Shown here one piece after another: positions 11,805 through 23,027 of a stretch of DNA of 64,000 bases (position 1 is its first letter; the number at the start of each line of letters is the position of its first letter). The notes beneath the pieces are model-generated. The model was not told the DNA's origin. It saw nothing but the letters and a program-made list of their open reading frames with translations, and did no database searches. Position numbers and translations under genes: made by a program. The DNA is taken from assembly GCA_005223125.1 (NCBI GenBank), contig NJBH01000006.1:1-64000 (forward strand), in the 5' to 3' direction. This DNA is from Promethearchaeota archaeon Loki_b32 (lineage in GTDB: Archaea; Asgardarchaeota; Lokiarchaeia; Sigyniarchaeales; SOKP01).

Positions 11805-12077
11805 ATTCCTAAAAAAAGAAAAAGTGGTGGAAAGAGTGGTTCTAAAAAAGGGCATTATGCTAGAGTTCAATGCTCAAAATGCGGACGTATGGTTGCTAGA
11901 AGTAAAGCAAAAGCCGTGACAAGAAGAACATCTTTAGTTGATGGTAGAATGTATGCTGAACTGAAAAAGACTGGTACTATTATTCAAACTCCAAGCACGA
12001 AAAAATATTACTGTATTAGTTGTAGTATCCACTCAAGGAATATCGCCCAGCGTGCTAAATCAGAGAGGAGAACTTAG
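11805..12077 (+). CDS. rps26e: Small-subunit ribosomal protein eS26, ATT start
   Basis: (M)PKKRKSGG..VQCSKCGR..KAK..YYCISCSIH; in-frame TGA at 11796 and no ATG/GTG/TTG before the conserved N-terminus. Confidence 0.92.
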   Translation: MPKKRKSGGKSGSKKGHYARVQCSKCGRMVARSKAKAVTRRTSLVDGRMYAELKKTGTIIQTPSTKKYYCISCSIHSRNIAQRAKSERRT

Positions 12078-12321
12078 ATTTAGTCACTTCGGCAATGTAT
12101 AATACTGCTACAGCACAACATATAAAGTCACCATGTAGTGAATCTTTTTTCTTTAAATATAAACAAGTTTATTCTATATTTAACGATGTTAATATAGTTG
12201 TTGTCAAACCTACAATTATAAATAAGAAAATAAAATAAGTGAAATAATATAATGGAACCAGAAATTTCTATAGAAAAGCGGATGTTAATGCATCTCTTAT
12301 GATGTGATGTTAACAAATTGG

Positions 12322-12363
12322 AAATTATTTTAAATCCTTGAGTGCTGAATTTTTCTGAGGTTT
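12322..12363 (+). repeat. 42-bp direct repeat, copy A
   Basis: AAATTATTTTAAATCCTTGAGTGCTGAATTTTTCTGAGGTTT; 40/42 identical to 19864-19905. Confidence 0.92.
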
Positions 12364-12384
12364 ATTTTATTATACAATAAAGAT

Positions 12385-12546
12385 GTTCAATCCTTTTTCG
12401 TGCGGATAATATTTGACAATTGCAAGAGTGATGTGAATGATGTGGATCAATCTTTATTTGCATGGATAATATAAAAGGTGATTCGAAAAATGTCTCAAAA
12501 GATTCATGTGGATCAATCCTTGTTCATGTGGATATTATATAAATAA
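12385..12546 (-). repeat. Three degenerate ~28-36 bp repeats (period 60 and 66), CRISPR-repeat-like
   Basis: + strand units GTTCAATCCTTTTTCGTGCGGATAATAT, GATCAATCTTTATTTGCATGGATAATAT and GATCAATCCTTGTTCATGTGGATATTAT. Confidence 0.6.
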
Positions 12547-12554
12547 ATATTATT

Positions 12555-15554
12555 TTAATTTGACTTAATATTTCGAAGAAATTCAAGTGCACATTCTCTA
12601 TAATACTTTCGATGTAGAGATAAGCCAATTTTTACATTCTCTTCATTGATTTTAAAACCACATGATTTGTTATTTATATTTTGTAATTGCTTTCTCTCTG
12701 TCTCTGGTAATTTCCAAGCCATATTCACCTTTAATTTTTCATCTATAACCTTTAGAGAGATCGATTTCATGATATTATCGGCATATTTTCTCTGTGCAAA
12801 GTAATAGGCAAATTCATTTTTTAGATTTTTATCTCGTTCTGTCATGTATTTCTCCCAATCCTCTTCCCACCATCTCATGCGGATAGCTGGGTATGTACGG
12901 GGTTTTATATTGAGTTTGTTAGATAAAATCTTGTTTTTTTCTACCCACGCAGGCGCTTTTAAAAATAAACCTATACTTTTATAATGTTCATAGTTTTCAT
13001 TTCGCAATTCATTCATATGTTCATAGTGAAAGCTTATTTTGACTATATTATGAATAATTTTATTTAGAACCAATAAACAATCAAAAAAATGAGTTAGCTG
13101 TTTTAACATATGTTTAACTTCTGACGAGTAATATCCAAAGATTATGTACTGAAGGAATTTTTCGAACTCATAAAAAAAGTCATTAATATAATTCTTAGCT
13201 TCACAACCAAAATCTTCTGGGGAAAACAAATCAATTCTTTCCTCCAGGAGAATTCTTATTTCGTTTAATCTTTCAATGAAGTTTTTAGGTGGTGTGAATT
13301 CTTTATCTTTTAATATGACTTTCAAGTCTTCAAACAAACTAATATCTGAAATATCTTTTATTACAGAAAGAAGATCCATTATAGACTCATTTTGATGCCC
13401 TAGAATTTTCATTATATCGTTATATTTTTTAATTTTTGAAGAATCTTCAAAGTCTTGACCATCTTGAAAACATAGAAAGATTTCTTTCTTAATAGGCTCG
13501 GTTAGTCTCGTATTTATCTTTTGTATAATATCAAGGTCTAACTTTTCATAAGCCATGAATAGGAACATAATTATATTATCGTGTACATTTGTCCATGGAT
13601 TTTCCGGAATATAGGTTTTAACAAGTCTATTTATTAGGTCATATTCAGGACTTTCAAATATTTGGCAAATTTGATCTTTATCATATATTTTAAAAAATTC
13701 TTTTAGGAACTCATAACTCCAATCTCCATATTCATAGTATTTATCGTTTAAAATGACGTTTTTTATGAAGGGAGCAATCATATCACTTCCCATTTCTCTC
13801 ATTATTTTAAATATATAATCTAGATAATCACGTTTTTGAGTGAATTTAAAAATAAGATCTCCACCTTCCGGACCCATTTTACTTAGAAAGTACTCGAGAT
13901 AAGTGGGTGGATATTCTTCGTTGAAAATCTTGTTAATAATGTTTAGAAAATTATGTCCTGAATTTTTTGATATCTTAATTACATCACTTTTATTTAATAG
14001 TTTGACAATTTCTGTATTAAACAGGTTTACAATAGCTTCATAGGAATTAGCTTGAAACGATGCTAATAAACATTCTATTATTAAAATCTTTAAGTTTTCT
14101 TTATTATCCTTTACAATATTAGTCGTAAGTTTACCAATTTCGTCCCTATACTCAAAATTATACTCATATTTATTATATATAATAACGTTAAGTAGTATTT
14201 TTAAACCAAGTTCTCCTAATTTTTCAATATTTTGCTTACTAGGAACGTAATTTCCAGAACTTACAATCTGTGAAAATTCTATAAGATCTAATTGTTCATA
14301 CTTTTTTTTCAAAGATTTCATCAAAAATTCGGGTGATTCTTTGTATATGATAAAAGTGGTCATGATCCAGCATTTTTCTTCACTATTCAAATCATCATAA
14401 TGTTTTGAAAGGAATTCACGTAAGATTCTTGAATTATTTTCGAGGAGAATCCCAAAAAGATAGAAACGAATCCGTTCCTGACGATTTTTATAAGCTAAAA
14501 TAGTTCTTTCTAGAATTTTTTTAATCTCCTCTGAAACGATACTTAGGAAAGGTATATCATATTTTTCAAGTAAATCTATGGTATTTTCGTTTAATTTAAA
14601 GTCTTTTTTATCTATTCCAGAAGCGTGTGAAGTATTATCAAGTATAATGAATGAAATTTTTCTCCAATCTAAATTCTTTAGGTTTTTCTGTATCTTTTCG
14701 AATATTAATTGATCAATTTTGTTTTGATCAAATAATAAATATGAAATCAATGCAACTTTTTGATCTTTGTTTAAAATGGAATACATTCTCTGAAAAAAAT
14801 TTACTATACTTTTAGAATTGCGAAAAATTAATATTTTGCTTACTTTTTGAAAGCTCTTGAATTTTTCTCTTAAATGATGATTCCATTCGATATACCAATC
14901 AAGTTCTTTTTTCAGTAATTTGAAAAGGGCATCATCCAACTTTTTCAAATCAAAGTCTTGAAATTCTTCTTCTGAAAAGGCATCAAATAAATCTTCTCGA
15001 AGAATGTCTCTAAAAATCTCAAAATTTTCTGATTTTAAATAATAATTAATGTCATTTTTTAGCACTAGTTTGGCAAAATCTTCATCAAATTTAATTAATC
15101 TCTTAAAATTGTATGGATATATTATACCCCCTGATAAAATATTAAGGTTCCTCTTATCAAATAGCTTACCTAAATCTTCTTCACTAAACAGATTCAAATA
15201 GCGATTCCCTAAAATAAAATTAACCACATCTGATTCACCACTTAAAAACCCCTTCAATACATCTCTTTTAAAAACTTTTTTAGCAATCGGTTCTCTTGAA
15301 TCAGATAATCTTTCCAATAATTGAAACGCAATATCATAAGGTAGGAGTGTTTTATCATATTCACTCTCTACCCATTTTTGTATAGATGAGCATCGGTTAT
15401 TGAATTCTTCCTCAGTATTGTCCTCATTACGTTCATTAATTGGGATTGAAGAATGCCAATGTACCAAAGTGTGTGTTTCCATATGGATTTCTGTAATAGA
15501 CATAACACCCTCTTGTTTTAGAGTAATATACTTATTAACCTTGAATTCTTTCAT
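12555..15554 (-). CDS. Large hypothetical helical protein with a degenerate Loki-type N-terminal domain
   Basis: 999-aa ORF; N-terminus MKEFKVNKYITLK..EEF..CSSIQKWVESEYD..LL..IAF is paralogous to the next gene. Confidence 0.8.
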   Translation of the reverse strand: MKEFKVNKYITLKQEGVMSITEIHMETHTLVHWHSSIPINERNEDNTEEEFNNRCSSIQKWVESEYDKTLLPYDIAFQLLERLSDSREPIAKKVFKRDVLKGFLSGESDVVNFILGNRYLNLFSEEDLGKLFDKRNLNILSGGIIYPYNFKRLIKFDEDFAKLVLKNDINYYLKSENFEIFRDILREDLFDAFSEEEFQDFDLKKLDDALFKLLKKELDWYIEWNHHLREKFKSFQKVSKILIFRNSKSIVNFFQRMYSILNKDQKVALISYLLFDQNKIDQLIFEKIQKNLKNLDWRKISFIILDNTSHASGIDKKDFKLNENTIDLLEKYDIPFLSIVSEEIKKILERTILAYKNRQERIRFYLFGILLENNSRILREFLSKHYDDLNSEEKCWIMTTFIIYKESPEFLMKSLKKKYEQLDLIEFSQIVSSGNYVPSKQNIEKLGELGLKILLNVIIYNKYEYNFEYRDEIGKLTTNIVKDNKENLKILIIECLLASFQANSYEAIVNLFNTEIVKLLNKSDVIKISKNSGHNFLNIINKIFNEEYPPTYLEYFLSKMGPEGGDLIFKFTQKRDYLDYIFKIMREMGSDMIAPFIKNVILNDKYYEYGDWSYEFLKEFFKIYDKDQICQIFESPEYDLINRLVKTYIPENPWTNVHDNIIMFLFMAYEKLDLDIIQKINTRLTEPIKKEIFLCFQDGQDFEDSSKIKKYNDIMKILGHQNESIMDLLSVIKDISDISLFEDLKVILKDKEFTPPKNFIERLNEIRILLEERIDLFSPEDFGCEAKNYINDFFYEFEKFLQYIIFGYYSSEVKHMLKQLTHFFDCLLVLNKIIHNIVKISFHYEHMNELRNENYEHYKSIGLFLKAPAWVEKNKILSNKLNIKPRTYPAIRMRWWEEDWEKYMTERDKNLKNEFAYYFAQRKYADNIMKSISLKVIDEKLKVNMAWKLPETERKQLQNINNKSCGFKINEENVKIGLSLHRKYYRECALEFLRNIKSN

Positions 15555-15569
15555 TAAGAACCATCCTCT

Positions 15570-18500
15570 TTAAAAAATAAATGTATCATCTGGATCGAAG
15601 TCAAATTCCTTAATTTCAAAATTAAATTTATATTCCAGTAATTTTTCTTTAGGAATATTATTTTTACCTAATACTAAGACTTTTAATTCTTTTAGATGCT
15701 CCAATCCTTTTATTTCAGATATTTCATTGCTGTATAAGTTGAGATATTTCAATTTTTTAAGACTATTTAAGTTTTCAATTTCCGAAATTTTATTGATACT
15801 TATATCGAGAAATTCTAAATTAATGAGATTGTCTAAACCATTGATTTTAGTTATTTTATTTCTGTTTAACTTTAACTTTTTTAAATTTTTTAGAGAATCT
15901 AACCCTTTTATTTCAATTAAAGTTTGATTATAGTTGATATTTAGAATTTCTAAGTTGTTAAGTTTCTCTAATCCTTTTATTTCAGAAATCCTATTCTGAG
16001 CTAAATCGAGTATTTTCAGCTTTTGTTGATTTTCGAGATTTTTAATTTCTCGAATGTTGTTTTTACGAAGAAAAATGGCTTCAAGATCAGTCAAGCTTTC
16101 TAATCTTTTTATTTCGTCAAAAGATCCAATGCTAAAATTAGTCAAATCTAATGCTTTATTCCAAATATAAAATTTTTTTCCATATACGAGTACAGATTCA
16201 GTATTTTCTTTAGGTATCAATTTTTGGCGACAATATTCCACAAAATTACGAGGATTTTTAGCCAAGTAAGGCCAACTTTTTGTCTCAACACTTCCCAATT
16301 CCTCAAAAAGTTGGTGATCTATTGGATTACCTCCAATACTTAAGCGATTTAATTTTGGAAGATCTTCTAAACCCTTTATCTCTGAAATATTGTTATTACA
16401 GAGTTCTAACATAGTAATATTATACAGACTCTTCAGTCCTTTAATCTCCTTAATCTTATTAAATCCAAGATCTAAGCGGAATAACTTTTTTAGGTTTTCT
16501 AACCCCTTAATTTCGGTAATTTGATTACTCGCAAGATCCAAATCTCGCAAGTTTGCAAGTTCAGATAATTGTCTGGGGATTTCTTTTAGGTTTAGATTTT
16601 TAAAATTTATGGTTGCAAGTGATTTTAGTCCACTAAACCAATTTGGGAATTCTTTTATCTTTGAAGATGATAAATCCAGTTCCACCAGATTTTTCAGGTT
16701 TTTCAACGATTTGGGTAGAGATTCGATTCTTGTGTTTGAAAGCTTTAAATACCTTAACTTTTTTAATCGTCCAAACGAATCTGGTAAAGTTTCAAGCTTA
16801 CACCCGAATGCATTAAAGGATTCAAGCGATTTTAAATCCCCTATTGATTCTGGTAAGGTTTTAATTGTATTTTTATGGTTATTTGATATATCTAAAGATT
16901 TTAAAGACTCCAACCCTCCAATGCTTTCGGGAAGAGATTCTAAGAGATTTTCAAACATTCTTATTGACTGAAGATTTTTAAGATTCCCAATGGATTCGGG
17001 GAGGTATTTGATGGGATTCCCGTTCAAATCTAATTTTTTCAGAGATTTTAATTCCCCGATGAACTCGGGGAGTGTAGTAAAATTATTGTAACTTAAATTC
17101 AGTTCTTCGAGCGAAGTTAACTTTGCAAAGGATGTGGGCAGATTTGACAAGGGTGAGTAACATATGTTTAATCTTTTTAAACTTGTGAGTTCCCCGATAG
17201 TTTTAGGTAATTGCTGCAAGTTGACTCCGTTTTCGTCCCAAATTGATAACTCCTCTACTTTTCCATTAGCAATAATAAAACCTGATCCCTGGGGTTCCTC
17301 ATCATTGTTATGTATAAATAAATCACTGTCAATTTCATTCTCAATTTCCATAAGAACCTCTTTTCCAGAAGAAATTAATTTCCAAAAATCTTCTCGATTC
17401 AAATCATTAACATAATCTCTAATGTGATAGCTAAACTTATCCTCATCATAACTGTGTCTTTCCATGAACCAAAATATACTACTAACAAAATCTCTTGGAA
17501 AAAAATCTCGAATATCAATCAGGATTTTGTCAATAATTTCATCATATTCCCACTGAAGCTTTTTGTATATTTGATAGTCAAGTGATAGTAGCAGTTCATT
17601 AATGCCCTTTGGAGCGATGCAAAGAAATTTTACTGCTAGAATGTCAAATCCAAAATCCCAATTATCTTTATCCTGGAGTTCTAACAATTGCTCTAAAATC
17701 AGATTCAAGATATTATTAGGTCGTCTTTTCAATTCAGTGGTCATCATCGTAGTGTTAGAAACTAACAAGGCCCTCAATTCGAGTAGAAGTGGTTCATTTA
17801 AGAAACTTTGATTAAATTCAGATTCTGTATCTTGAATGATGGTCGTAAGGAAAAAATCTAGTATGTCAAGAGCGTAAGAATTCTTATTTACTGCATAGAG
17901 CTTGAAGATTTTCAAATTAAACCGCCTATCGCTTCGCATAACGTTCAAACACTCCTCTTCTAAAGTAGTTTCGATATGGGTGAGAAATTCTTCAATATCA
18001 TCAATCCTTATATATTTGAATAAATATTGAAAATTGATTAAATCCCTAAATAGGTCTATATCATCAGTTTTTAATCGTTCCAGTAAAGCCTTCCTAATAT
18101 CTTGTATCTCACTAAAATCTTCGTCTTTTATGAAGAAACTAATGCGGTTTAATAAATTAACCAGTGGTCTTCTAGAAGAATAGCTTTTTGTGAAATACTT
18201 GAAATTGTTGTTCTTTAGCATGTTAATTAGCAAGAGAACCTTGATGTTATTAAAAAATCTATCCTCAAATATACCAAATCTTGGGATATTAATCAAACCC
18301 TTAACAAGTTCTTCTTGATTCATGATATTTTTGAGGATCAAGGAGGTCTCTTCATCATCAAGGACACTTTTTATCACTTTAAAAATAACAATACCTTTAG
18401 GATCTTTTTTTCTCACCAGATCAACTATGATTTTAACGAGCTGTTCCCTTTTATCCTCTGACATGTTTTTAATAAATTCTTCGAACTGTGGAAGTTTTTT

Positions 18501-19808
18501 TATCATAAGAATCATGTTTTTCGGAGATATATCTCCATGAATAAACGTTTGGAGGAGATTCACAATGACATTCTTATTTTGTAAGGAATCTATTGCTTGC
18601 TTGTTTAAATACCTCGTCAAATCATTAAGCTTAAATAATTCTAGGAGGTTATGCTCATCCTTACTACAAATAAGTTCGATGATTTTAGCAGTGATCTCGC
18701 GATCATTTACAAGTTCAAGGGTTCGTGAGGAGTATATGAAATCAGATTCTTTTTCATTAAGTAAAAAACGAGTTATTATCTCTTCTTTGAGTAATTTATT
18801 TGCAACATCATCACCTTTTTTAATGAGGTATCTCAAAAATGTGGAAAACATAATGGTGCGAATATCACTTGTTTCTAGAAAAGCTTTAATAGTTTCTTTT
18901 AAGGTATTACTGTTTTTACAAAAGAGATGTTCCACTCCAGATTCCTCTAGGTATTGAATGACTAATCGTCCTAACCAATATTCAAATGCTATTGGAAATC
19001 TTGGAAATTTTTTAACAAATTCACGAACCTTACCATCCTTACGTTTATTCACGTAGGCTCGGAGCATCGCATTATGCATTCCTGGATCAAGCTGTATATC
19101 CCTGTTAGAACGAAAATAAATACCTTCTGGCCTAAAAACTCCCGTATACAGCATTATTGCCCCAGATGTCTCCTCATTTAAATCTTCAAAGACTTGTTTC
19201 CAGTTTTCATCTTGAAAAGAATCCATTAGTCGAAACAGGTTTATAAACCTAAAAATCGAATCATCCCCCGCTTCGATTCTCTTTAGTGTTTGATCCAATA
19301 TCCGAGGATAAGGTGCAAGAAACATGTTTTCACGGATGTTTTTATCTAGATATTCTAGATATCCATTTTGGAAAAGATATGAAACGACTGGTAAATACCA
19401 AGATTTCAAACGTTTCATTATTTCTTCTTTGAGGGCGCGTTTAGCAATTGGATCTCCAATGAGAGACAGTTTTTTAAGCAAGGGAAAAGCTAAATTCGAA
19501 TGGAGTAACCGAGTATCGTATTCATGTTCCACCCATACTTGCATATTCGAACAATGCCCCCAAAATTCTGTCTCTGGTGGGATTCTTGATGCAACCATAT
19601 CCATTCGCTCGAGAGAGCGATCTAATTTTTCAGCAGCTTCATCGATAGATTCAATCTCATCAAAAGTGCTAATTTTATCAACAGGAATATTCAGCAATAA
19701 AAACTTACATTGATTAAACAATTGTTCTTTAACATAAATGTTGGTCTTTTCCCCTTCCAGCTTTAACGTGATGTACTCATTAACCTTGAATTCTTTCTGT
19801 GTAGGCAA
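15570..19808 (-). CDS. Leucine-rich repeat protein with Loki-type N-terminal domain
   Basis: KEFKVNEYITLKLE..QCKFLLLNIP..EFWGHCSN..LAFPLLKKL N-domain; LPESIGxL-type and ISEIKGLE (SDS22-like) LRRs in the C-terminal part. Confidence 0.92.
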   Translation of the reverse strand: MPTQKEFKVNEYITLKLEGEKTNIYVKEQLFNQCKFLLLNIPVDKISTFDEIESIDEAAEKLDRSLERMDMVASRIPPETEFWGHCSNMQVWVEHEYDTRLLHSNLAFPLLKKLSLIGDPIAKRALKEEIMKRLKSWYLPVVSYLFQNGYLEYLDKNIRENMFLAPYPRILDQTLKRIEAGDDSIFRFINLFRLMDSFQDENWKQVFEDLNEETSGAIMLYTGVFRPEGIYFRSNRDIQLDPGMHNAMLRAYVNKRKDGKVREFVKKFPRFPIAFEYWLGRLVIQYLEESGVEHLFCKNSNTLKETIKAFLETSDIRTIMFSTFLRYLIKKGDDVANKLLKEEIITRFLLNEKESDFIYSSRTLELVNDREITAKIIELICSKDEHNLLELFKLNDLTRYLNKQAIDSLQNKNVIVNLLQTFIHGDISPKNMILMIKKLPQFEEFIKNMSEDKREQLVKIIVDLVRKKDPKGIVIFKVIKSVLDDEETSLILKNIMNQEELVKGLINIPRFGIFEDRFFNNIKVLLLINMLKNNNFKYFTKSYSSRRPLVNLLNRISFFIKDEDFSEIQDIRKALLERLKTDDIDLFRDLINFQYLFKYIRIDDIEEFLTHIETTLEEECLNVMRSDRRFNLKIFKLYAVNKNSYALDILDFFLTTIIQDTESEFNQSFLNEPLLLELRALLVSNTTMMTTELKRRPNNILNLILEQLLELQDKDNWDFGFDILAVKFLCIAPKGINELLLSLDYQIYKKLQWEYDEIIDKILIDIRDFFPRDFVSSIFWFMERHSYDEDKFSYHIRDYVNDLNREDFWKLISSGKEVLMEIENEIDSDLFIHNNDEEPQGSGFIIANGKVEELSIWDENGVNLQQLPKTIGELTSLKRLNICYSPLSNLPTSFAKLTSLEELNLSYNNFTTLPEFIGELKSLKKLDLNGNPIKYLPESIGNLKNLQSIRMFENLLESLPESIGGLESLKSLDISNNHKNTIKTLPESIGDLKSLESFNAFGCKLETLPDSFGRLKKLRYLKLSNTRIESLPKSLKNLKNLVELDLSSSKIKEFPNWFSGLKSLATINFKNLNLKEIPRQLSELANLRDLDLASNQITEIKGLENLKKLFRLDLGFNKIKEIKGLKSLYNITMLELCNNNISEIKGLEDLPKLNRLSIGGNPIDHQLFEELGSVETKSWPYLAKNPRNFVEYCRQKLIPKENTESVLVYGKKFYIWNKALDLTNFSIGSFDEIKRLESLTDLEAIFLRKNNIREIKNLENQQKLKILDLAQNRISEIKGLEKLNNLEILNINYNQTLIEIKGLDSLKNLKKLKLNRNKITKINGLDNLINLEFLDISINKISEIENLNSLKKLKYLNLYSNEISEIKGLEHLKELKVLVLGKNNIPKEKLLEYKFNFEIKEFDFDPDDTFIF

Positions 19809-19863
19809 TTTTATGGTTTTTTCATATTTTTGTCTTATAATTGGATAAGATACTTATAAATAA

Positions 19864-19905
19864 AAATTATTTTAATTCCTTGAGTGCTGAATTTTTCTGA
19901 TGTTT
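19864..19905 (+). repeat. 42-bp direct repeat, copy B, just upstream of the LRR gene TATA-like box
   Basis: 40/42 identical to 12322-12363. Confidence 0.92.
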
Positions 19906-20031
19906 TGATGATTTTCGCTAGACTTTTTCTTTAAATAGTTTCAAACACACAATAATAAAAACCGTAATTTTCAATAAAATATTTGAGGAGAAGATAAAGG
20001 CCTCCCTTAACCATGGCTCCTGTCAGACACC

Positions 20032-20093
20032 CTGGATTTTTGTCTTTTGATCGTGTAGTAGGTTACACGATGTTTTCGCCCTCCTCCCCCTAT
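20032..20093. repeat. 62-bp dispersed element, copy 1
   Basis: 49/62 ungapped identity to 63565-63626; ATCGTGTA-N6-TACACGAT palindrome; invariant TTCGCCCTCCTCCCCCTAT. Confidence 0.85.
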
Positions 20094-20523
20094 TTGAGTT
20101 GATGACCTTCTGTTTAGGTCGAGCTGGCAGGAGTCACTTTTAAAATAATCATAATCGACAACCCTCATATACTTTATATTTTTGTAATTATATTTTGAGA
20201 GTGTAATGTATGAAAAGAGCGAAGCAGTAAAACAAGTGAGAGGGGAGCTAATTCAACAAACTCTGGATAAAATTTATGAGACTCTGGATTTTAGTGATCT
20301 TAGAACAAACACATATGGATGATAAAAGAGTAACTGTAGATAATCCTCAAAAGGAATTAATTGAAGAAGCTGAAAAATATATTAATGAAGCAGAATTGAA
20401 GTTAAAGAATAAAAGATAATCATACTCCAGAGTTTTTCCGGATTTCATCTTCTTTAATTCTAAAAATCTAGGATTTTTTATTTATAAATATAGAACAAGA
20501 TATACAACTAAAACATCTTTAGG

Positions 20524-20988
20524 TTGAAAAATGTGAAAATCATAAAGGAAGATAGAGATCAAGGTACAGTGACTTCCATAGAATTCTTTAAAGAACATTA
20601 TAAAGAATTAGGAGAGATTAGATATCTCATTCTTTATTATGCTGAGAGAGAATGGAGCATAAACCATAACTTACAGCATCAGTACACGATCTTTATTGGG
20701 GAGAATGCTCAATTATGGTTATTTGGTATAGCATGGGGGTATTATGGACAAGAACCTTCTGGTTTGCATGAGATAATAGGTATGATTGATCCTGAGATTA
20801 CTTATAAGCAAATTGTAGATTTAGAGTGGATGGCGGAAGAACCGATAATGTTTGAAATTGGTGAAAGCAAATTTATTTTGAAACATATAACTGAAAATGT
20901 TAAGGAAATACTTCGCAATGGAAATAGATTTTTACCATGGGATATACGAAATGTAAGCCAACGAGATAAGAGTGAAAGAAGAACTTAA
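20524..20988 (+). CDS. Hypothetical protein ending in an eS26-like C-terminal peptide
   Basis: 154-aa ORF with a WGYYGxEPxGL motif; ends RNVSQRDKSERRT. Confidence 0.7.
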   Translation: MKNVKIIKEDRDQGTVTSIEFFKEHYKELGEIRYLILYYAEREWSINHNLQHQYTIFIGENAQLWLFGIAWGYYGQEPSGLHEIIGMIDPEITYKQIVDLEWMAEEPIMFEIGESKFILKHITENVKEILRNGNRFLPWDIRNVSQRDKSERRT

Positions 20989-21041
20989 AGTCTACTCTTT
21001 ATATGTTATTACTTTCTTATCATATTTTTATAAATGAAGAA

Positions 21042-23027
21042 TCATAGATTTAATTGTTTAAAGAAAGCTGGAAGATTATAAATTATTTTGACCATATCTT
21101 TTGTTGTAGTCTCTATAATAGCCCTAATTAAGAAATCGTTCTTTAAATCTTCTTCAGGTTCATAAATTTTCACCTTAGCTGTTGATTTAATTTTAAGAGT
21201 ATAATTTTCAGCAATTCCGGTAACATTTTCACTAGTTTTCAATTTAATTCCCAATAAACCTAATTCATAATGGGAAACAATAAAAAGAATTTGTTCTGGG
21301 ATTTTTTTGGATTTTTCGAAATACACAACTTCGAAGTAATCATCTTGAAGTTCCTTTGGAAGTTTTGAGAAGGGAATTGTTTTTTTTTTTCCTGTAATAT
21401 ACGGAAATGGGGTATAAAACAAGAGATTAAAACTTGAGATTTTTTTAATTTGTTCATTATATTTTTCAACATCCTTAATTGAGTAAGCTTTATCTAATAA
21501 AACATCTAATTTATCGACCATATCTTCCGCTGAATATCCGGCCAAAACCGTTGCAATATAAGATCTTTTAAGCTTTTCTATTAAGGTTTCACTTTTGTAT
21601 GTTAATTTATAGTCAATTGAGATTTCCAATGCTTGATTGTAAAGATTTACAGCAATTTGAGAATGTCCTAATGCCAAGAAATAATCCCCTAATTCACTAA
21701 ATACTATTATCGCATCGAGAAAATTTTCTTCGAAATCAATTTTTGAGATTTCATCCATGATATTCATTGCTGTATTCTTATCTTCACCTTGAATATAGAT
21801 TGCTATAGCTTTACCGATTAAAGATTTAAGACGTAACTTATCATCTCCATAAATATCGGCTAATTCTTCAGTAAAATTATATTGTTTAATAGCATTTTCA
21901 TAAAGTCCATGAAATAGATATATTAAGGCTTTGATATAATTTAGAGTTAAACAAGTCTTATGATTATGGATTATGATGGAAAACAATGCAGCTCTTTCAA
22001 GTGAATCTATAGCTGCGTTAATCCGGCCAAGCGAAACTAATAAATACGCCCGCAAAAATTCCATCTTGCTAATTTCAGAACATATCAACTGCTCCACAAT
22101 CTCATAATCCTTGATATTTGTTAACTGCCCCGATGCGACTTGAAGTAACGATACTAAAAAACCATTACCTGTTTTTAAATATTTTACAGCATCCTTTGTT
22201 TCACTTTTTATTATCGCTTCTCGAGCCCGGATTACATATTCCCTTGAAATTTTTAAATTTTCAAGAAATTTTACTATTCTAATTATTTGATCCTCTTCAC
22301 TTTGAGGGAGATCCTGATTAGATATATACTTCTCAGCAATGTTAATTTCATCTGCATATTTTGTAGCGCCGATCTCAAATTTAACACCAGTATCGGGATT
22401 TTCTAACTCAACATCTTGAGATAATATCGATGTTTCTGTAACTGCAATCGCTTTTTCAATCAACCAGGTTATTTTTTGTTCAGCGGGATATATTTTAGAG
22501 CGTTCAATCATATATGATAATGTATAATTTAAACTTCTTTTCCAAAGTTCTTTAAAATATTTTCTCATCTGAGATTTAGCAATTGTTCTCTGTATTTTCA
22601 ACAAAAAACTTGAAAGTGATAATATATTAATTTTTCCCTTGTAGAGTAAATTTGTATTCTTTGCTAATTTAAAATCATCGGTTACTAGGTGAACAGGCAA
22701 AGCACTATTTTCATCCATTAATTTCTTTCCAATGCAGACAAGTGTTAAATCAGGATCTTGAGCAGGAAATCTAATATTAAATTGATTTAAATCGTCTTTA
22801 ATAGCATCTATTTCTCTTGGGAGTACTTTTTCTACATTAATTATGTTTTTTAGCTTGTCTTTATATGTATGTGGTGCTTTTATTTCATCAAACACGACTT
22901 GAGAAATATAATATTCATATCCTAAATCTTCAGCGACAATTTCTAAATTTTTTAGAACATTACGGGCTTTAATTTGGAGCAGACAAATGAAATAATTAGC
23001 ATCAAATATGATTCGCTGTTTAGGCAT
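21042..23027 (-). CDS. PIN-domain (Nob1/VapC-like) + TPR-repeat protein
   Basis: IIFDANYF, VFDEI, DPDLTL and LVTDDFKLA acidic PIN motifs; TPR-like helices such as ELGDYFLALGHSQIAVNLYNQALEI. Confidence 0.75.
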   Translation of the reverse strand: MPKQRIIFDANYFICLLQIKARNVLKNLEIVAEDLGYEYYISQVVFDEIKAPHTYKDKLKNIINVEKVLPREIDAIKDDLNQFNIRFPAQDPDLTLVCIGKKLMDENSALPVHLVTDDFKLAKNTNLLYKGKINILSLSSFLLKIQRTIAKSQMRKYFKELWKRSLNYTLSYMIERSKIYPAEQKITWLIEKAIAVTETSILSQDVELENPDTGVKFEIGATKYADEINIAEKYISNQDLPQSEEDQIIRIVKFLENLKISREYVIRAREAIIKSETKDAVKYLKTGNGFLVSLLQVASGQLTNIKDYEIVEQLICSEISKMEFLRAYLLVSLGRINAAIDSLERAALFSIIIHNHKTCLTLNYIKALIYLFHGLYENAIKQYNFTEELADIYGDDKLRLKSLIGKAIAIYIQGEDKNTAMNIMDEISKIDFEENFLDAIIVFSELGDYFLALGHSQIAVNLYNQALEISIDYKLTYKSETLIEKLKRSYIATVLAGYSAEDMVDKLDVLLDKAYSIKDVEKYNEQIKKISSFNLLFYTPFPYITGKKKTIPFSKLPKELQDDYFEVVYFEKSKKIPEQILFIVSHYELGLLGIKLKTSENVTGIAENYTLKIKSTAKVKIYEPEEDLKNDFLIRAIIETTTKDMVKIIYNLPAFFKQLNL

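Follow-up and report, generated by a model that had tools for sequence, protein, structure and literature searches.

An 8.9-kb island within the 3′ end of a lokiarchaeal rps26e gene, bounded by a foreign and a displaced native gene end

The ribosomal-protein gene rps26e (eS26) of Promethearchaeota archaeon Loki_b32 is interrupted within its 3′ end by an island of 8,936 bp (positions 12017–20952 of the window, i.e. the whole 64,000-nt stretch of contig NJBH01000006.1 that was analyzed), which supplied a foreign gene end and left the remnant of the native one on its far side. We favor, with a probability of roughly 55%, the reading that genes were gained here by tail-anchored capture, in which short homology anchors the incoming DNA in a conserved gene end and the far joint is illegitimate. 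The island is a base-resolved case of gene-end replacement and not a new class of element; new are the mobile tail lineage, the polymorphism within the population and a candidate second mini-intron site in relatives. In the literature that we searched there was no account of such a gene-end-replacement island in Asgard archaea. The large genomes of Asgard archaea contain many acquired genes, and the vehicles described for them are viruses, transposons and integrase elements. Here, a gene gain is resolved to the base, is polymorphic in the population and recurs at one ribosomal gene across the family. The features of the locus are as follows:

11805–12016, plus strand: host 5′ part of rps26e (eS26), through the first Cys of the second CxxC; 12016 is the last base common with the empty allele
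12017–20952, no strand: island, missing in relatives and in some members of the same population; the joint of 12016 to 20953 occurs in sediment runs X1, X4 and X8
12017–12077, plus strand: foreign rps26e 3′ end of 61 nt, which keeps the fourth zinc ligand, has 7 amino acid changes and belongs to the island-type tail group
12322–12363, minus strand: stranded copy of a 42-bp upstream (promoter-like) element, 95% identical to 19864–19905
12555–15554, minus strand: 999-aa cargo protein with a common Lokiarchaeal N-terminal module, frameshifted in another strain; no Pfam match
15570–19808, minus strand: 1412-aa leucine-rich-repeat (LRR) cargo protein with the same N-terminal module as the 999-aa protein (domain search and tblastn)
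19864–19905, minus strand: 42-bp element upstream of the LRR gene (repeat comparison)
20011–20156, no strand: multi-copy intergenic element of ~140 nt, its ends inverted and its internal motifs conserved; at least five further copies in the genome
20524–20988, plus strand: ORF154, a small protein whose own end is cut off and which continues in frame into the native eS26 tail; the tail is missing from 19 homologs
20953–20988, plus strand: displaced native rps26e 3′ end, the last 11 codons and the stop; identical to G100 and to the empty alleles of three runs
21042–23027, minus strand: PIN-TPR gene, the usual convergent neighbor of rps26e (locus comparison)

The gene (11805–12077) encodes 90 aa, matches PF01283 and begins with ATT, a start codon (11805–11807) that many relatives use as well. 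At every genus-level locus of the initial comparison, the convergent PIN-TPR gene comes immediately after rps26e. In contigs with an empty site from the public sediment runs X1, X4 and X8, which belong to three studies, 25 other bases separate 12016 from 20953; these 25 native bases were found at neither end of the island, and the last 36 native bases persist at 20953–20988. The empty joints of X4 and X8 could originate in related strains. Filled and empty forms coexist in the population: the X1 contigs have depths of ~30 in the flanks, 16 in the island and 8 at the empty joint, where contig depth does not equal the share of cells, and in X4 the island form is a small minority. Because the same island is carried by the independent MAG GCA_019057855.1, in which the 999-aa gene is split, and by X1 contigs, it is not an assembly artefact. 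The genome G100 is identical to the distal copy from 20953 through the stop and on into the spacer, and the empty-site tail of G001 matches the distal copy at 37 of 42 nt, compared with 22 of 42 for the attached copy. A first-pass annotation had proposed from the sequence that rps26e received its divergent tail through an insertion, on the far side of which the native tail remained, and had predicted empty sites at which rps26e adjoins PIN-TPR with a 3′ end closer to the distal copy; such sites were found in G001, G100 and the runs X1, X4 and X8. The PIN-TPR region (20953–22900) is 96–98% identical to G001, compared to a background of ~84% on both sides, which is possibly a recent recombination tract. 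An exact sequence look-up of PIN-TPR returned no matching record, and a representative search added nothing.

The earlier counts for the two tails were reproduced: they share 10 of 13 amino acids and 26 of 42 nt, 7 of the 10 shared residues are encoded by different codons, and GC3 amounts to 7/14 in the attached and 2/14 in the distal copy. Both copies lie where they had been placed, but the foreign part starts at 12017 rather than 12036 and the native remnant at 20953 rather than 20947. The distal ‘RN’ is not native, as empty alleles read H-Q at this point and relatives of ORF154 end in LPWDIR or LPWSIR unaided. The true overlap of the copies is 36 nt, with 22/36 nt and 8/11 amino acids identical. 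Altogether 61 native nt were exchanged for 61 foreign nt, of which 32 are identical (52%); this changes 7 amino acids and retains the Cys and the His. The attached tail had been called recoded; ‘from a divergent lineage’ describes it better, as 7 amino acids differ as well. Only these two tail copies occur in the 4.1-Mb genome (six-frame search, 4 mismatches allowed), and in a chance control, 5,498 gene ends were compared with the 13 aa ahead of other stops within 20 kb, where the best match was usually 4–5 of 13. The copies are not paralogs, since the 27 aa upstream of them share 0 residues. The alternative of the first-pass annotation, that ORF154 uses a tail mimicking eS26, was contradicted by its homologs, as 0 of 19 have the tail. 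The foreign tail with its post-stop bases is 80% identical in nt to the metagenome locus L147. A short post-stop motif ending in TTCGG is common to three island alleles (window 12078–12100, L147 and L224). The swapped eS26 presumably works in ribosomes, and eS26 would tolerate a swap inside its zinc knuckle.

Within the island, the N-terminal module of both minus-strand cargo proteins gave 21 tblastn matches in the genome. The 42-bp element, for which we infer a promoter-like role, has other copies upstream of genes on contigs C71 and C24; the gene belonging to the copy at 12322–12363 appears lost, and this stranded copy suggests an internal deletion in the island. As att sites the 42-bp repeats were ruled out, because of their position within the island and their further copies ahead of other genes. 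Three degenerate 42-nt repeats with a period of 60–66 bp are located just inside the island (12375–12542). Further copies of the element at 20011–20156 were found on contigs C26, C49 (twice), C64 (twice) and C44 (position 63562) of this genome, it is also present in relatives, and it is very deep in sediment contigs; it is a candidate structured RNA or MITE, and Rfam returned no match in the island, this element included, or in the intron loci described below. ORF154 was considered as a recombinase or nuclease and rejected, its predicted structure being a confident model without a PDB fold match and with unnamed Atlas clusters only. Some of its homologs lie in mobile-looking neighborhoods. The closest one (G018; 85% nt identity over 20454–20940) is followed by 11 nt that match the native site where the left breakpoint lies, a match noticed post hoc that occurs in 0.00085 of random 40-mers. 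The end of this homolog (L032:1477–1513) looks like a collapsed copy of the clade's native rps26e tail at an unrelated locus.

We surveyed the tail type at 106 distinct rps26e loci, outgroup families excluded. The ordinary tail C-A-[IV]-H was observed at 94 loci, 90 of which adjoin PIN-TPR within 300 bp and 4 lie further off, and the island-type tail C-S-[IV]-H-x5-QRAK at 12, of which 10 have no adjacent PIN-TPR gene, 1 is too short to tell and 1 adjoins it; as the loci are not mutually independent, the Fisher value for this association is overstated. Outgroup rps26e genes had the ordinary type in 20 of 20 cases. Wherever a close empty relative was available, the 5′ part of the filled gene matched that relative (112–119 of 120 nt) and switched within the YYCISC codons; the breakpoints fell within ~16 nt of these codons in every such case and are not identical between loci (L146 compared to L120). 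In a tree of the tails, the island-type sequences form one group (1 change, 98/87; 2 changes without the defining codon), and the island type requires 9 changes for 11 rows in a tree built from the 5′ part; the tail alignments are short (26–42 columns), seven metagenome loci and G145 were found by a pattern requiring the island-type motif, which favors the grouping, and some filled contigs belong to MAGs with 6–8% contamination. As judged from these alignments, the island-type tails group together despite scattered hosts. An identical tail was observed on different host alleles (L120 compared to L122/L149), and behind an identical tail the cargo turns over, with divergence setting in within about 250–270 bp. 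The only candidates for a donor lineage that has the island-type tail as its normal allele are L148/L151. At L148/L151 and L225, island-type or intermediate tails lie directly beside PIN-TPR, possibly as scars of lost islands or as donor lineages. At locus L224, other cargo is preceded by a foreign tail that belongs to the C-A type. In two genomes the same intergenic spot was entered from the PIN-TPR side, with the 3′ end of PIN-TPR duplicated around cargo (237 bp and 75 bp; L122 and L138). A free copy of the tail outside rps26e was found in none of the 161 genomes, the metagenomes or the viral contigs, and a DNA search for the left end of the island in 135 genomes yielded AT-rich noise only.

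Type and orientation of the cargo vary between filled sites, with LRR genes here and VirB4/HerA-like ATPases and giant proteins elsewhere. A complete 13.3-kb island in G120 (contig C67) encodes a TPR protein, VirB4-like and HerA (DUF87) ATPases and a 1,745-aa acidic protein and no integrase; ‘VirB4-like’ is a reading of the architecture, which has no Pfam match. Its native remnant is short by at least 26 nt, compared to the 25 bases lost here, and G145 has no clear remnant. ATPase modules are present in the islands of G120, G015 and G145, in the last in the opposite orientation to G120. The G015 contig C30 was considered as a free element and rejected, as the gene fragment on it is truncated where the contig ends and is of the chromosomal type seen in G145. 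A single ORF of 12,290 aa downstream of the filled rps26e site of G145 (C185:1928–38800; L159–L161) recalls the giant proteins of aloposons. The giant cargo proteins show, by eye, a nuclease-like C-terminal motif and have no Pfam nuclease match. A recurrent module that combines two ATPases, one VirB4-like and anchored in the membrane and one of the HerA/DUF87 kind, with a long acidic protein whose nuclease-like tip varies was also noticed at L140, L142, L143 and L144 (contigs C4, C64, C67 and C60 of the Loki_b32 genome) and at L122, L039 and L158; it may be a secretion or polymorphic-toxin system.

Similar scars were observed at other genes of this genome. In a genome scan, 33 of 3,134 ORFs of at least 150 aa had a copy of their 3′ end 0.3–20 kb downstream (median 111 bp, 83% identity, range 34–419 bp), i.e. 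~1% of the genes bear a similar scar; a reverse-order control gave 11 pairs, mostly paralogs, and a few of the 33 genes are paralog pairs too. Some scars are near-identical (95–99%). For each of six genes tested, at least one close relative is without the cargo. One of these scars is at the gene for uL2:

G000:C4:12640 and 14443 (L252), strand not given: uL2, with a foreign, synonymously divergent 123-bp end and the native end behind a 437-aa gene

The distal copy of uL2 is closer to relatives than the attached one (106 compared to 88 of 123 nt), the protein is unchanged over the last 40 aa, and the cargo is one unrelated 437-aa ORF. For genes on C10 and C32 it is likewise the distal copy that resembles the nearest relatives more; in the case of GyrA, SAH hydrolase and a gene on C18 the comparison with relatives fails to tell the copies apart or points in the opposite direction. 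Altogether, about 30 other genes of this genome, uL2 among them, appear to carry displaced 3′ ends. The recurrent hits at rps26e together with these ~30 scarred genes, without an integrase, point to a routine route of gene gain in these archaea. Such integrase-independent gene gain is testable by a simple genome scan, and caution is advisable with ribosomal marker genes (eS26, uL2), as their 3′ ends can be foreign.

At the rps26e island ends that were examined, no recombinase was found. Recombinase and transposase Pfam families were absent from the ORFs scanned in the islands, in agreement with the first-pass annotation, and the host tyrosine recombinases, which are encoded on other contigs than the island, matched none of 16 island or junction sequences; ~10 left and 3 right island ends were covered. 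There was no att direct-repeat core common to the junctions, and 25 nt of the target were lost. Terminal repeats (including terminal inverted repeats), Cas1, transposase and target-site duplication were not found in the island, Pfam and structure comparison gave no candidate nuclease in it, no intron-encoded nuclease was seen, and viral contigs had no match to the tail. An excision or circle joint was not listed in four contig sets, which drop rare forms. The target gene is restored by an element-borne end, as in tyrosine-recombinase integrative elements. On one side the crossover is in frame and in homologous DNA, as in 3′-end displacement; the far joint is non-homologous, with variable loss in the recipient (25 nt here, at least 26 nt in G120) and little or no microhomology. 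The earlier proposal of a mobile element that targeted the gene stands as to the insertion; att-type recombination by a dedicated element is not established, as native bases were lost, the island ends examined had no recombinase and ~30 unrelated genes are likewise scarred.

Several known systems resemble the island in part. Prophage e14 in icd of E. coli (icdA/icdC), as far as the account in PMC11148124 (citing Hill 1989) goes, likewise gives a housekeeping gene a diverged in-frame 3′ end and orphans the native end on the far side; e14 encodes an integrase and its duplicate is complete (165 bp, 12 changes), whereas the island has no integrase, 52% identity and lost 25 native bases. Streptococcal ICEs, IMEs and CIMEs likewise use ribosomal-protein genes recurrently (3′ ends of rpsI, rplL, rpmE and rpmG) and undergo decay and accretion (PMC5704250), but they have a tyrosine recombinase and near-identical direct repeats of 8–60 bp, and CIMEs keep attL and attR (PMC5704250); in the island the crossover has no matching repeat and the protein sequence is altered. 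C-terminal displacement of Rhs/T6SS modules, for which homology-facilitated illegitimate recombination has been proposed, resembles the island in doing without an integrase: homology anchors one side, the other is joined illegitimately and the former 3′ part ends up downstream (PMC5361080). There, however, the swapped 3′ module is the payload, a toxin tip (PMC5361080), whereas here the end of a core gene is a mere anchor for unrelated cargo, and many core genes serve as anchors. Insertion with long target duplication has inserts <20 kb, repeats >30 bp and no mobile-element genes, like the island, but its repeats hardly differ from the target and restriction-modification genes are carried (PMC2853133), while the attached copy of the island is foreign (32/61 nt). 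Family 1 casposons in aEF-2 of Nitrosopumilus are likewise mobile DNA of archaea and occupy the 3′ end of a gene essential for translation (PMC4046053), but they have Cas1, PolB and TIRs, none of which was seen in the island, and leave the target unchanged (PMC4046053). Asgard aloposons use tRNA sites, and the iMGE Yucahu-i has an integrase and an exact 11-bp att (PMC8813620, PMC11529989), none of which was seen here; the giant proteins in some rps26e islands are a likeness to these elements. Aloposons are defined by tandem genes of 3,000–6,000 aa, a tRNA site and a ParA-like ATPase, whereas the largest ORF of the island has 1,412 aa and its target is a protein gene.

On the recombination chemistry and the route of DNA entry, we infer the following. 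DNA from another island-bearing Lokiarchaeon, consisting of an rps26e 3′ end and its own cargo, would enter the cell, and its conserved YYCISC-coding stretch would pair with the host gene and cross over in frame. The far end would be joined illegitimately further along the host gene, here with deletion of 25 native bases and with the rest left as an orphan. Selection would retain only those events that rebuild a complete eS26, because the break falls between the two last zinc ligands. Over repeated events, a divergent lineage of eS26 tails could become a portable anchor between species, with changing cargo. Against anchoring, the breakpoints cluster more tightly than plain homologous recombination predicts, the tails form a single group (compared to 9 changes on the 5′ tree) without a clear donor lineage, and the G018 homolog has the 11-nt match that a conservative attR would leave; moreover, in experiments with bacteria homology-facilitated illegitimate recombination is a rare event (PMC5361080). 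The clustered breakpoints, the one tail group and the 11-nt match keep alive, as a possible though somewhat unlikely explanation, a family of site-specific integrative elements that target rps26e and bring their own tail, like e14 in icd, with the copies seen being grounded relics; the recombinase would act in trans or have been deleted together with the start of attR, and the other scars of the genome would come from a separate generic process. The identical tail on different hosts and the ATPase modules of three islands fit such elements. However, none of the island ends covered has a recombinase, the attR core is absent from both complete islands (possibly by later decay), no free tail exists outside rps26e in the sequences searched, ATPase modules also occur at unrelated places in this genome, and the breakpoints differ between loci.

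Considerably less probable is a homing-type spread, in which the ordinary YYCISCAVH-coding site would be cleaved by a nuclease and then repaired from a template with an island, so that the gene acquires a tail resistant to cleavage along with the cargo; mobile mini-introns at the site or the giant cargo proteins could be the source of such a nuclease. The Ala-to-Ser change and the lost bases fit cut-and-repair, the motif in the giant proteins would supply a nuclease, and a 29-nt hairpin insert in rps26e of other Lokiarchaeia lies 2 nt from the breakpoint, a coincidence of sites. However, conserved sites are favored by mobile DNAs anyway, no nuclease was found in the island, in the giants by Pfam or in the mini-introns, and the other scarred genes would be left unexplained. 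We also doubt, if less strongly, the broader idea that Lokiarchaeia harbor a hitherto undescribed kind of mobile island that has no integrase and nothing constant but an eS26 tail with an evolution of its own; by a shared site-directed cut, this tail would swap across genera at the codons that a mobile tRNA-type mini-intron occupies, so that eS26 tails would differ between ribosomes within a population. A local duplication of the gene end at insertion (a long target duplication) with later divergence in place is a known integrase-free mode (PMC2853133) and fits some of the 95–99% scars, but for rps26e we consider it, like mimicry by ORF154, highly improbable. Divergence in place is untenable, because 32/61 is too different while filled and empty alleles coexist; the overlapping copies are likewise only 22/36 identical, and the attached tail groups with tails of other hosts. 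The empty-site joints and the tail grouping, together with the tailless ORF154 homologs, largely refute both at this locus.

Finally, hairpin inserts were noticed in rps26e of relatives. In at least three lineages (L220:6063–6100, L221–L223, L231 and L233:409–438), the Ser codon of the CISC motif is split by an insert of 29 nt, at the position that corresponds to 12018/12019 of the window and thus 2 nt from the breakpoint of the island. It has bulge-helix-like ends and conserved exons on both sides, creates a stop or a frameshift unless removed, and by these features looks like a tRNA-type intron. A hairpin insert of ~29 nt is also found after codon 32 of rps26e (L119/L174, L138 and L139, in G092, G086 and G089), from which the insert in the CISC codon is distinct, and the latter is thus a candidate for a second mini-intron site in this gene.
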